Sequence record: OL960577.1
DNA from: Escherichia phage vB_EcoM_SA35RD
DNA: 64,000 nucleotides
Direction: 5' to 3' (one strand)
Below the pieces are notes generated by a model. It ran no database searches and was not told the origin of the DNA. It saw only the letters and a list, made by a program, of their open reading frames with translations. A program made the translations under genes and the position numbers. Of this stretch, positions 36,578-39,996 are shown piece after piece; the stretch's first letter is position 1, and each line of letters starts with the position of its first letter.

Positions 36578-37534
36578 TTATTTGAAAGGTTTTACCATAT
36601 GAAAGTTTTGTTTGAAACGCTTGACGTAATCGTCGTGTCCTAAGCTTTGGTACATACTTACTACTTTGCTATAATTTTCCCAAGCGAACTCACGGAACCA
36701 TCCTGATGTGATTGATGTACAGACCTTTTCAAGGGCCATCATAAAACTATCACGTGGATGGATTTTAAAGTCGTTAGGAATCTGAGAACGTTCTAATGCT
36801 AGTACACATGATTCTTCATATACACCGGCCAATTTGACCATTTCTGGTAATGATTCGAACTTCTCGCGTGAGGTCATGACTTCAGAACCATCTTTCATGT
36901 AAAATGTATAAGCCGGACGGTCTGTTAGTGCAATAGCTTCGTGAATAGTATCATGGTCATATGTATAGATGTCATCTTTAAAGAACGCACTTTTAGAAGT
37001 GTCAAGAACAGGGTGAGCATAGTTCAAGGTTTCTTTCTGGCGTTTCAGCATAATTTCAGTAAGTTCATCGTTCAGTTTAACACCTTTACCACGAAGATAC
37101 TGAATATGGTTCATAGTCTTTAAAAAGAATGGATTATTTTTCTTGAAACGATGAGACATCTTAATTGCAAGACATATCTCAGGAGTTGCCCAGTAAAACC
37201 CGTTCAAACGGTCTTTAGTCAAATTTTTCTTGGCGTATTTTAAAAGGTCATAAGAAGACGTGAAATCTTCAGGAGTGAGTTCACCGACTAATTCACGGAC
37301 ACTAGTGATTGCCGGAACAATATATGCTTCAAAATGAGTTTCGCGTCCATTATGGAAGCATTTGAAAACTTGGACATCAGGGTTATCTTGGTGAACATAT
37401 ACACCCATCATTTGATTTTTGAATGCATTCCAAGAACCTTGGTCCGCAATAAAGTCCCAATCACTATTTTTAATAGCGCTAGAATCAATAAGACCGTGAT
37501 AGTGAAGTGCACGAGAACCAATAACTAACATCAT
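36578..37534 (-). CDS. hypothetical protein (318 aa), possible nucleotidyltransferase-like N-terminus
   Basis: VIGSRALHYHGLIDSSAIKNSDWDF loosely fits GS...D-x-D; weak. Confidence 0.45.
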   Translation of the reverse strand: MMLVIGSRALHYHGLIDSSAIKNSDWDFIADQGSWNAFKNQMMGVYVHQDNPDVQVFKCFHNGRETHFEAYIVPAITSVRELVGELTPEDFTSSYDLLKYAKKNLTKDRLNGFYWATPEICLAIKMSHRFKKNNPFFLKTMNHIQYLRGKGVKLNDELTEIMLKRQKETLNYAHPVLDTSKSAFFKDDIYTYDHDTIHEAIALTDRPAYTFYMKDGSEVMTSREKFESLPEMVKLAGVYEESCVLALERSQIPNDFKIHPRDSFMMALEKVCTSITSGWFREFAWENYSKVVSMYQSLGHDDYVKRFKQNFHMVKPFK

Positions 37535-37562
37535 AATATTTTCCTCGGATTAATTCATTAAC

Positions 37563-37814
37563 TTAAATTTCACGACATGCGATATTATATTCATCCCAGA
37601 GGTCATCATGTGAAGCCTCTACCAATGGAACGATTGTACCGTTTATGTCTTCATTATAAGGGCAAATTGTACAGTGCGCATCTTCGAATCGGATGCCTTT
37701 GTGTTCAGATTTTTTATAACGCATATCGAATATCTTTGCAAACTTTTCACGAGTAATGGTTTTACCAACCACTTTGGTTCCGATACTTTCGTAATAAATC
37801 ATTGTGGACTCCAT
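37563..37814 (-). CDS. hypothetical Cys/His-containing protein (about 80 aa)
   Basis: HCTICPYNED motif; start 37814 or 37802. Confidence 0.45.
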   Translation of the reverse strand: MESTMIYYESIGTKVVGKTITREKFAKIFDMRYKKSEHKGIRFEDAHCTICPYNEDINGTIVPLVEASHDDLWDEYNIACREI

Positions 37815-37830
37815 TTGTTTTGATAGGACT

Positions 37831-37860
37831 ACTATAACATAGCCCTATCTTGTTGTAAAC
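37831..37860 (-). promoter_or_regulatory. early promoter cassette (-35 GTTTAC, -10 TATAGT)
   Basis: Read directly. Confidence 0.5.
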
Positions 37861-37864
37861 TGTT

Positions 37865-38062
37865 TTAGCAAGAATAACTAGATGATACCCAGCCTTGAAC
37901 AGTGATACTATTGTGGGATAATGAGATCGCGTCCTGGAGATTCAGACCTGCGTTATCTTCAATCCATAATGTAACTTCTTCGCGTTCTTCTGTTGCAATT
38001 TGGAACAGGTTTTCCAGAGCAGCTACTGCCGTACGTACAGCACAATCTAATTCACGAGACAT
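37865..38062 (-). CDS. hypothetical protein (65 aa), GWVSSSxxC-tail family
   Basis: Ends QGWVSSSYSC. Confidence 0.45.
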   Translation of the reverse strand: MSRELDCAVRTAVAALENLFQIATEEREEVTLWIEDNAGLNLQDAISLSHNSITVQGWVSSSYSC

Positions 38063-38071
38063 ATTGTTTCC

Positions 38072-38344
38072 TTAGCAAGTGTGAGAAGATGCGACCCAAC
38101 CACCAGTTTCGAGGCTCAGGTTGTAGTCGTATTGGTAAACGTCAGCCCATTCAGCATAGCCATTTTTTGTACAACGTTCAAGATCGGCTTTAAGATGTCC
38201 GGGTGAATGATAGGTTCCACCCATACCGTAAGCTGGATACAAGTCGAATGTTGTGTTTTGTTTATCAGCAATTTCTTTGGCAGCCTCAATAGCTGCATAG
38301 ATTTTTGCTACAGCTTCAGCCAGTTCGGTTTGTTCTTTAGACAT
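38072..38344 (-). CDS. hypothetical protein (90 aa), GWVSSSxxC-tail family
   Basis: Ends GGWVASSHTC. Confidence 0.45.
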   Translation of the reverse strand: MSKEQTELAEAVAKIYAAIEAAKEIADKQNTTFDLYPAYGMGGTYHSPGHLKADLERCTKNGYAEWADVYQYDYNLSLETGGWVASSHTC

Positions 38345-38353
38345 AATGATTCC

Positions 38354-38659
38354 TTAGCACAACGCAGAAGACGAAACCCAAGCACCTTCAGTAATAACGT
38401 AACCATTACCTTCACGCTTAACATCGCCACCATTATTTTCAATTTCATCTTTCATCCACTGGGATACGATTTCACCCTTAGGATAATAAGTACGACCGCT
38501 ACCATAATCACCTACAGAAAATGATACGGCATATTGGTCTGCGATCTTTGTTGCTTCTTCTTCGATACGTTCAGCTTGATTCAGAAGTTTATAAATTGCA
38601 TCTGAAGCGGATTTGGCATTATTAAACTCTGGTACTTTAATTTCAATAATCTTACTCAT
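38354..38659 (-). CDS. hypothetical protein (101 aa), GWVSSSxxC-tail family
   Basis: Ends EGAWVSSSALC. Confidence 0.45.
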   Translation of the reverse strand: MSKIIEIKVPEFNNAKSASDAIYKLLNQAERIEEEATKIADQYAVSFSVGDYGSGRTYYPKGEIVSQWMKDEIENNGGDVKREGNGYVITEGAWVSSSALC

Positions 38660-39015
38660 TTTCTACATTCCTTAATAAAGTTTTCGATTGTTTCATTTTC
38701 ACGTCTAGCTAGGAGTTCATTATAACTAATCATTTGAGAAGCGTAAACCTTTTTATTTTTCTTGTTATGGTTTATAAAATCGTAGTAAAAATAGACTACA
38801 GTACAAAATGATGCGATGGATGCAAAGGCTTGGGTATACCGTAAGTCCTGCCATTGGTCTGTGAATCCACCAGTGTTCCCTATAAATCCTAACACAACGC
38901 CGTCAATAAGAAATCCAACTAATCCAAAGGCAAATCCCATGCCAATACTCATAATAAAAATTAGAATGTTCTCACCAAGAGAAGGCCATACGGTTAAGAG
39001 TTGAGGCTTTTGCAT
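38656..39015 (-). CDS. hypothetical membrane protein (119 aa), C-terminal ENFIKECRK tail
   Basis: Two or three hydrophobic spans. Confidence 0.5.
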   Translation of the reverse strand: MQKPQLLTVWPSLGENILIFIMSIGMGFAFGLVGFLIDGVVLGFIGNTGGFTDQWQDLRYTQAFASIASFCTVVYFYYDFINHNKKNKKVYASQMISYNELLARRENETIENFIKECRK

Positions 39016-39419
39016 CTTATTTCCTTAACGAATTCCATAGCTTCTTCATATTCATACTTTTTAATAGCTTCATCATACTGAGCTTGGGCTTTTGCGCACT
39101 GAACTTTCCATTCTCTTAATCGGGCTCTGTGATGACGGCCTTGGTGCCAATATCCCACCCAATTAATAGGCATTAATAAAAACGGTACAATAAGTGGTGC
39201 GACGAACATTAATGAAAATGCTGCATCAGACGATATAACTTCACTAGAATCTAAAACAGCTCCTATAATCATAAAGATTAAAAATGCTAAAGCTAAAATA
39301 GGGCCAAATAGTACTTCATTTGGGATTAATTTACGCTTGTATTCATACGCCCAGGGCTTACTTGGCATGTATAGGGTTGGCTTTGACATATTCTCTACAT
39401 TCCATAATAAATTGCTCAA
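38994..39419 (-). CDS. hypothetical membrane protein (about 131-141 aa), C-terminal EFVKEIRCK tail
   Basis: Hydrophobic spans; start ambiguous (39419 or 39389). Confidence 0.45.
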   Translation of the reverse strand: MSNLLWNVENMSKPTLYMPSKPWAYEYKRKLIPNEVLFGPILALAFLIFMIIGAVLDSSEVISSDAAFSLMFVAPLIVPFLLMPINWVGYWHQGRHHRARLREWKVQCAKAQAQYDEAIKKYEYEEAMEFVKEIRCKSLNS

Positions 39420-39975
39420 GGATTAAATTGTTAGTGAAATTAGGACTAACAACCATAGTTTCATAAAGCGCATCAATAGCACTTAAAGCATCAACTCTTT
39501 TAAGCAAAGGCTTGCCTTCATACATAGTTTCAGAATCGACGATTAAAGTGAAGTAGTATTTTTTATTATTGGCCAGAACTTCTGTATCAATATAAAACAT
39601 GTTAGACCTTAAAAGCTTGTCTCTAAAGCCTACGTAATCATCTGAACGTTCACTGATATATTCCCATTCGGTGTTTAAACAACAAACAGACCACGTAGGA
39701 GCAACGAAATCAGTGAATCTAATATCATGGTCTGCAACTAGTTTAGCAATAGCTCCGATATCATGAATCATAATACCTGGGGCTAATAAAGATTTTCGGT
39801 TATTTGCATATTCAGTTGTCTCATAAGAAGACGACCAGTACCATTTACGTCCAGTTGCAACATATCGTAATGAATCAACTAAAGACGTAGGTGGATTTAC
39901 CTTATCTCGGAACTCTTCGAACATTGAGTCAATATCATTATTTTGGTTTCGCATGTTAACTCCTTTATTATCCAA
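39358..39975 (-). CDS. hypothetical protein (205 aa), C-terminal EQFIMECR motif
   Basis: Track ORF. Confidence 0.5.
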   Translation of the reverse strand: MDNKGVNMRNQNNDIDSMFEEFRDKVNPPTSLVDSLRYVATGRKWYWSSSYETTEYANNRKSLLAPGIMIHDIGAIAKLVADHDIRFTDFVAPTWSVCCLNTEWEYISERSDDYVGFRDKLLRSNMFYIDTEVLANNKKYYFTLIVDSETMYEGKPLLKRVDALSAIDALYETMVVSPNFTNNLILEQFIMECREYVKANPIHAK

Positions 39976-39996
39976 AAGGAGGACCGGGGTCCTCCG
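39973..39996 (-). terminator. terminator hairpin GGAGGACC-gg-GGTCCTCC
   Basis: Perfect 8-bp stem; T-run follows on minus strand. Confidence 0.5.

Follow-up and report, generated by a model that had tools for sequence, protein, structure and literature searches.

Several described systems come close to the locus considered here. In the type VII toxin-antitoxin pair HepT/MntA, and likewise in GlnD-PII, a nucleotidyltransferase of the Pol-beta fold takes as its substrate a hydroxyl residue of a small protein that is co-encoded with it or otherwise its partner. In arrays of ribosomally synthesized and post-translationally modified peptides (RiPPs), such as the lanthipeptides, several precursor genes are served by one modifying enzyme, and Ser/Thr and Cys residues occur in the modified region, while sulfur carriers of the DsrC/TusE type bear a conserved Cys on a C-terminal arm. 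MenT toxins, in turn, extend the 3′ ends of tRNAs with nucleotides, under the control of MenA antitoxins encoded upstream (PMC10435456, PMC7450476, PMC11375011). The locus in question lies in a stretch of 64,000 nucleotides from Escherichia phage vB_EcoM_SA35RD (sequence record OL960577.1), the whole of which is called the window. At positions 37865–38659, on the minus strand, three open reading frames (ORFs) encode small proteins of 101, 90 and 65 amino acids (aa) that share a C-terminal tail ending in Cys. An earlier note had described this array; the strongest signal at the locus, which is absent from that note, is the linkage of the array to a nucleotidyltransferase-fold gene two genes downstream, which encodes a protein of 318 aa (36578–37534, minus strand).

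In its fold, the 318-aa enzyme is like the enzymes of MenA/MenT and AbiEi/AbiEii (DUF1814), but there is no DUF1814 sequence match, only DUF7275 and DUF7277 being found by Pfam in all 40 enzyme members scanned. In contrast with those pairs, the phage enzyme has an extra, extremely conserved DUF7275 domain, it is accompanied by one to six partners sharing a Cys-terminal tail, a tail that has no counterpart in MenA/AbiEi, and the module is found in lytic phages and not on bacterial chromosomes. The likeness to HepT/MntA and GlnD-PII is one of concept, the predicted acceptor in the phage being a tail Ser or the invariant Tyr or Thr of a YGxGxTY motif; however, the phage small proteins show no homology to HepT or PII, and there are several paralogous partners. 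As in RiPP arrays, several small genes with Ser-Ser-x-x-Cys accompany one enzyme, and some of them have a repeated W-x-S-S-x-C. However, the phage small proteins are folded proteins of 60–100 aa, with a mean predicted local distance difference test score (pLDDT) of 91.5 in the AlphaFold2 model of the 101-aa protein, and not leader-core peptides; no export or protease genes are seen by the phage array, and the RiPP enzymes LanB, LanC, LanM and LanKC, radical-SAM enzymes and YcaO have no Pfam match in the seven proteins encoded at 36578–39419. With DsrC/TusE the phage proteins have in common a small size, an acidic character and a strictly conserved Cys at or next to the C-terminus, but a DsrC-like fold was sought in the phage small proteins and not found. 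The window proteins are clear members of phrog_899 and phrog_4882 (small proteins) and of phrog_2141 and DUF7277/DUF7275 (enzyme), entries that give no function and record neither the tail nor the linkage.

The three tail-bearing ORFs stand in tandem, as the earlier note had described them. The gene of the 101-aa protein, designated class A (38354–38659, minus strand), encodes an N-terminal helix, a GDYGSGRTYYP hairpin, an acidic linker and the tail AWVSSSALC; that of the 90-aa protein, class B (38072–38344, minus strand), encodes a helix, a YGMGGTY hairpin and the tail GWVASSHTC; and that of the 65-aa protein, class C (37865–38062, minus strand), encodes the tail GWVSSSYSC without a YGxGxTY hairpin. 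The proteins end in EGAWVSSSALC, GGWVASSHTC and QGWVSSSYSC, respectively, and all three share the ending W-V-[S/A]-S-S-x-x-C, with Cys as the last residue and a TAA stop codon directly after it. With their stop codons, the tails W-V-S-S-S-A-L-C, W-V-A-S-S-H-T-C and W-V-S-S-S-Y-S-C occupy 38354–38380, 38072–38098 and 37865–37891 of the minus strand. In a six-frame scan of the 64-kb window, covering 349 ATG-initiated ORFs of at least 30 aa, no further ORF with this tail ending was found, and a looser form of the pattern occurred in 0 of 1702 opposite-strand control ORFs from related loci. Tail codons vary synonymously among the copies (GTA, GTC or GTT for Val, AGT or TCT for Ser) and, therefore, it is at the protein level that the motif is kept. 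As regards structure, the AlphaFold2 monomer of the 101-aa protein is a compact fold with a long helix at residues 15–43, which agrees, for the one protein that the model covers, with the helical N-terminal region that the earlier note attributed to all three.

Similarity among the three proteins is uneven. The 101- and 90-aa proteins align over 73 aa (BLASTP E = 3e-6), and they remain significantly similar when the last 10 residues are removed, only 3 of 2000 shuffles reaching the score; the similarity centres on an A..IAD helix followed by a Y-G-x-G-x-T-Y hairpin, and both proteins match phrog_899 (E = 1.4e-22 and E = 3.5e-19, respectively). The 65-aa protein instead matches phrog_4882 (E = 7.7e-37) and lacks the central hairpin. 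Deprived of its tail, it has its score against the 101-aa protein reached by 703 of 2000 shuffles, which is not significant, and that against the 90-aa protein by 81 of 2000, which is marginal, and in profile–profile comparison an E-value of 3e-7 with the tails gives way to P = 0.033 without them. Its match to the family hidden Markov model (HMM) is weak (E = 6.6e-4) and due mostly to the tail. The view that the 65-aa protein is a true paralogue outside the tail as well, for which both the shuffles and the profile–profile comparison are marginal, was not adopted. Judged by sequence comparison, the triplet is made up of two clear paralogues, of 101 and 90 aa, and a 65-aa protein that shares essentially the tail. 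Thus, of the three paralogues named in the earlier note, those of 101 and 90 aa stand, since their alignment holds without the last ten residues, and for the 65-aa protein the support outside the tail is marginal.

The same tail recurs far beyond this phage. A profile built from 33 diverse members and run against 1.84 billion proteins in 50%-identity clusters (E ≤ 1e-3) found 738 cluster representatives, nearly all of 70–175 aa and with a match that extends to the final residue. Homologues retain the terminal motif, whose absence from them the earlier note would have taken as a refutation, the Cys being exactly terminal in 129 of 137 inspected representatives. In a logo of 181 sequences, which were chosen by the tail pattern W-x-[S/A/P]-S-S-x-x-C itself, Trp(−8), Ser(−5) and Cys(−1) are found in 181/181, Ser(−4) in 178/181 and Ser, Ala or Pro(−6) in 179/181. 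The terminal Cys is the sole Cys in 97 of these 181 pattern-selected sequences, and their median isoelectric point (pI) is 4.46, the window proteins having values of 4.2–4.8. The small proteins gave no match in Pfam, NCBIfam or PADLOC and no fold match in the Protein Data Bank (PDB). Some members contain extra internal W-x-S-S-(x)-C units (L040 3105–3329; L124 3413–3631; P0054, P0162 and P0163), of which EDWLNSSCYGEE...IWYPSSC and GWESSSEGWESSSEGWVSSSSQC are examples, and the motif can therefore be repeated in the manner of a short linear motif. Small acidic proteins that end in G-x-W-x-[S/A/P]-S-S-x-x-Cys-COOH thus form one large group, restricted to phages and defined by its tail.

Linkage to the enzyme gene was followed in both directions. 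Starting from the small proteins, a same-strand homologue of the 318-aa protein is found about 0–2 kb downstream in all loci whose downstream sequence is long enough; the tail-bearing ORFs, one to six in number, are on the same strand about 0–3.5 kb upstream of the enzyme homologue, and small-protein gene and enzyme gene directly adjoin or overlap where the loci are most distant, as in 230-kb Aeromonas phages, in a 371-kb jumbo phage and on small metagenomic contigs. Starting from the enzyme, at least one upstream match to the family HMM is found in 70 of 80 viral-contig loci. Among the ten HMM-negative loci, four have divergent tails, e.g., DDWDSSSANC, and one has no upstream sequence, which brings the total to about 74 of 79 testable loci with a tail-bearing ORF. 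Copies of the tail pattern per enzyme locus range from none (8 loci) through one (15), two (20), three (12), four (4) and five (19) to six (2). The pairing also occurs in unrelated groups, including Phapecoctavirus with three tail-bearing ORFs, an Acinetobacter T4-like phage and jumbo phages of 355–371 kb. Across 57 distant loci, the enzyme is present in 57/57 and every other window neighbour in 0–6 loci each, with 0/57 for a homologue of the 83-aa gene that stands between array and enzyme gene in the window; flanking genes are wholly different by lineage (Rnl1/PNKP; NrdD/endonuclease VII/NAMPT; primase-helicase). Since all other neighbours turn over and the enzyme stays, the linkage is not general synteny. 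Among 185,579 bacterial and archaeal species genomes, five enzyme loci were found, all of them on contigs of metagenome-assembled genomes (MAGs) and all with tail-bearing ORFs; the module is, thus, essentially phage-restricted.

The 318-aa protein combines DUF7277, a Pol-beta-type nucleotidyltransferase core (G6-S7, D25, D27 and E69), with DUF7275, a helical domain that contains many invariant His, Asp, Glu, Arg and Cys residues. Its AlphaFold2 model (mean pLDDT 91.5, pTM 0.86) has a nucleotidyltransferase fold, the top structural matches being the toxins MenT1, TglT/MenT3 and MenT4. Residue counts refer to 86 aligned sequences, i.e., the window protein and 85 homologues. The hG[GS]...Dh[DE]h motif and the third carboxylate are present, with G6 and S7 in 85/86, D25 in 83/86, D27 in 85/86 and E/D69 in 83/86, and the same five positions are invariant in a further alignment (A4). 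Near-invariant in DUF7275 are K125, H128, H174, H194-D195, H198, E240-E241, E248-R249, C272 and S274-G278, and about 60 residues of the 318-aa protein are invariant. This near-invariance of catalytic and DUF7275 residues is in keeping with a protein that is enzymatically active and whose conserved surface is large. The fold is MenT/AbiEii-like, but the protein has neither a DUF1814 match nor any PDB sequence match and, therefore, is not classifiable as a member of that group. Homologues form more than 2,200 clusters; of 50,697 phage genomes on deposit, 732 encode one, and the hosts of these phages belong to many genera. The records call the protein a 'nucleotidyltransferase' in a few cases and, apparently wrongly, a 'prohead assembly scaffold protein' in some others.

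The most plausible reading of these observations is that the three window ORFs are real early genes whose products would act together with the downstream nucleotidyltransferase-fold enzyme, the shared tail being the element by which differently built small proteins engage one enzyme. Two options can be considered. The tail could be a modification site, in which case the Pol-beta-type enzyme would transfer a nucleotide to a hydroxyl group, as provided by the two or three invariant tail serines beside the terminal Cys, or else it could serve as a common docking handle. That the tail is such a shared handle or modification site is tentatively put at a little short of an even chance. The reasons are that an invariant, strictly C-terminal motif is found on different bodies (five classes), that it is occasionally repeated internally and occurs in one to six copies, and that its neighbour is, with few exceptions, a single enzyme whose active site is intact and whose surface is very conserved. 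It is from this arrangement that a physical interaction between small proteins and enzyme, its chemistry and its biological role may be inferred. Given the MenT-like fold and the recurrent tRNA and RNA-repair neighbours, the role may be tRNA- or RNA-related.

Several observations weigh against this proposal. The AlphaFold2 monomer of the 101-aa protein places the tail's Trp-Val in a beta-strand and shows its Ser-Ser-x-x, with confidence, as a turn, so that the tail is possibly in part structural and not a free peptide. MenT-related Pol-beta nucleotidyltransferases target tRNA 3′ ends and not proteins (PMC10435456, PMC7450476). About 5 of the 79 testable enzyme loci have no tail-bearing ORF, and enzyme homologues of actinophages are without Cys-tailed ORFs (Streptomyces, L122 4630–5322; Gordonia, L123 4600–4893). 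In the window, a promoter-like site and the unrelated 83-aa gene part the array from the enzyme gene, and in Dhakavirus and Klebsiella phages about 0.3–1.1 kb lie between the end of the nearest tail-bearing ORF and the enzyme gene downstream, so that the arrangement does not depend on strict co-translation. Finally, enzyme residue 243, which is either Cys or Tyr, showed no covariation with the type of tail.

A bolder form of the proposal, which is considered rather doubtful, is that the module is a new tail-modification system of large lytic phages, in which the enzyme would act on the Ser-Ser-Ser-x-x-Cys of an array of carrier or effector proteins. Its chemistry could be O-nucleotidylylation of Ser, possibly followed by elimination and addition of the Cys, or alternatively an adduct linked to a nucleotide or a tRNA could be assembled on the tail, and the products might serve host takeover, tRNA-related counter-defence, or both.

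As an alternative to tail-mediated engagement, the small proteins could be antitoxin-like regulators. The 318-aa protein would then be a MenT/AbiEii-type enzyme whose target is the 3′ end of tRNA or some other nucleic acid, and the small proteins would inhibit or regulate it as MenA does MenT, with the tail plugging the active site or controlling it allosterically. Such a role would suit the top structural matches, which are all MenT toxins, the position of the small genes upstream of the enzyme gene on the same strand, at times overlapping it, and the tRNA and RNA-repair genes that recur nearby; moreover, MenT activity is itself controlled by diverse MenA antitoxins, through asymmetric binding or induced auto-phosphorylation (PMC10435456, PMC11375011). 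However, up to 5–6 distinct partners per enzyme are atypical of toxin-antitoxin pairs, a promoter and unrelated genes can intervene between partner and enzyme, and the module belongs to lytic phages and is nearly absent from bacteria, as the five MAG contigs among 185,579 species genomes indicate. Regulation of this kind is, thus, judged unlikely.

The small proteins could also be independent, host-directed early proteins, i.e., takeover or anti-defence factors with no need of the enzyme, in which case the tail would bind or mimic a host component or be a signal for stability or localisation, and the linkage would reflect no more than shared regulation or a shared pathway. Their small size, acidic pI and location in an early-gene region with promoter-like sites are in keeping with this explanation, as are the variation of copy number by lineage and the frameshift-truncated single copies of RB69 and of the mar005P1 record, which suggest that individual copies are dispensable. 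Nevertheless, the linkage to the enzyme outlasts the complete turnover of the other neighbours in unrelated phages, which is hard to understand without a functional tie, and the proteins match no known defence-system model. Independent action on the host is accordingly regarded as improbable.

The earlier note had favoured diversifying duplication, as seen in host-interaction genes. A recent duplication of this type would account for the tandem layout, the low identity between copies and the copy number, which differs between genera. Nevertheless, each copy has one-to-one orthologues in other genera: for classes A, B and C, identity is 62%, 52% and 55% to the Dhakavirus proteins and 50%, 54% and 57% to those of Klebsiella T4-like phages, respectively, whereas paralogues inside one genome are just 15–32% identical. 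It follows that the duplications date far back and that every copy has been maintained. In addition, identity is 95% or more for the 101-aa protein across 135 Mosigvirus records and for the 1.6-kb locus across 193 phage records (about 190 of Mosigvirus), a near-invariance by which the array is not hypervariable. Recent diversifying duplication is thus very unlikely, and the stable orthologue classes across genera, together with the identity within Mosigvirus, overturn that part of the earlier note. Variation in copy number among relatives, which the same note had suggested looking for, was found, with 0 to 6 copies by lineage. Dhakavirus and Klebsiella phages have in addition class D, ending in GFWFSSSMSC, and class E, ending in DGKIWYPSSC and with an internal WLNSSC, the window retaining three of the five classes (A, B and C), and the variation in copy number looks like differential retention of five old classes. 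Two truncated copies were observed: the class A copy of the RB69 reference, RB69ORF139c (P0002, 71 aa), and the class B copy of mar005P1 (P0048, 75 aa) are both frameshifted and have lost the tail, being either natural knock-outs or else sequencing errors.

That the ending is a nucleotide-level element, serving translational coupling, ribosome binding or RNA structure, has in its favour the same Shine-Dalgarno-like spacer after two of the three stop codons, but it is so improbable as to be ruled out, as the earlier note had argued on the basis of the third copy, because the tails differ in synonymous codons, what comes after the third copy is a promoter-like site and not a coding start, and the peptide tail is common to hundreds of divergent proteins with differing downstream sequence.

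The source phage of the window is an RB69-like T4-type phage of the genus Mosigvirus, and its 1.6-kb locus is 99.4% identical to that of phages APCEc01 and JK36; it lies between the e lysozyme/nudE genes on one side and the tRNA cluster on the other. The three array ORFs are in a single reading frame and separated by nothing but a TAA and 9 nt (TAAGGAAnCAnTATG). A 9-nt spacer, GGAATCATT (38345–38353, minus strand), leads from the TAA of the 101-aa gene to the ATG of the 90-aa gene and forms with the preceding stop codon a Shine-Dalgarno-like TAAGGAA, and the spacer GGAAACAAT (38063–38071, minus strand), between the 90- and 65-aa genes, is of the same design. The 9-nt spacing rhythm is also seen in Dhakavirus arrays (L038 1875–2882), and readthrough of the stop codons would fuse the three array ORFs. 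The promoter that the earlier note placed after the third copy was recovered by a consensus scan as an early-promoter-like site, TTTACA-17-(TG)TATAGT (37859–37831, minus strand; 10/12 matches and a TG extension). This putative sigma-70 or T4-early-like promoter is located directly 3′ of the 65-aa ORF and 5′ of both the 83-aa gene and the enzyme gene. The 83-aa gene (phrog_3723; 37563–37814, minus strand) lies between array and enzyme gene, outside the conserved core, and the partner enzyme gene, on the same strand as the array, begins 330 nt downstream of it.

Upstream of the array, the genes at 38656–39975 of the minus strand hold the positions of T4 e.3, e.4 and e.5 (L003 5958–7271) and have similar sizes. 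At the position of the 101-aa gene, T4 has e.2, followed directly by nudE, with no array, 83-aa gene or enzyme; e.2 was considered as a homologue of the 101-aa gene because of this position and was rejected, being unrelated and without the tail, and neither array nor enzyme was found in the 14 kb checked of the syntenic T4 region from e to the tRNA genes. The 'sulfurtransferase' label on the e.4-like neighbour (38994–39419, minus strand; L001 7495–7869 in JK36) was discarded, since the protein has no Pfam match at E ≤ 1. Between the e.6-like and e.5-like genes, at 39978–39995, there is a perfect GC-rich hairpin, GGAGGACC-GGGG-GGTCCTCC on the plus strand, with a T-run on the minus strand, which by its sequence looks like a candidate terminator upstream of the array-containing operon.

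In other phages, the surroundings of the module include genes for tRNA and RNA repair. Rnl1 and PNKP are found in the 371-kb jumbo phage (L034 689–3478), an RNA ligase lies near the enzyme homologue of Streptomyces phage Annadreamy (L122 2064–2723), and tRNA clusters occur near the module in a Gordonia phage (L123 5850–8011) and in the window's own phage type (L001 11512–12342). This neighbourhood hints, anecdotally, at a tRNA-related role. In the Streptomyces and Gordonia phages, the enzyme homologue is directly followed by one or two small ORFs that share K-[TV]-T-G-Y-[YR]-[DN]-S; these were examined as tail-family homologues and set aside, as the best HMM score of 6 bits is insignificant and hhalign gives P = 0.46.

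In the literature searched, no paper was found that names these ORFs (including RB69ORF139c), their Pfam and PHROG families or the motif, and both the tail and its linkage to the enzyme appear to be undescribed so far. A link to the DNA arabinosylation and hypermodification pathways of RB69 was considered and dropped, two papers on these pathways making no mention of the ORFs or the enzyme. Both families, with 738 representatives of the small proteins and more than 2,200 clusters of the enzyme, have been catalogued merely as unknowns. The occurrence of Trp, Ser-Ser and a terminal Cys on varied bodies beside one enzyme gives rise to a precise and cheaply testable hypothesis, which, if true, would assign a role to two DUFs and several PHROG families together. 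If the tail is indeed a modification site, a new post-translational chemistry or an enzyme-adaptor logic would be added to the early functions of phages, and the module could be a new participant in the arms race, centred on tRNA, in which phages face nucleotidyltransferase toxins.

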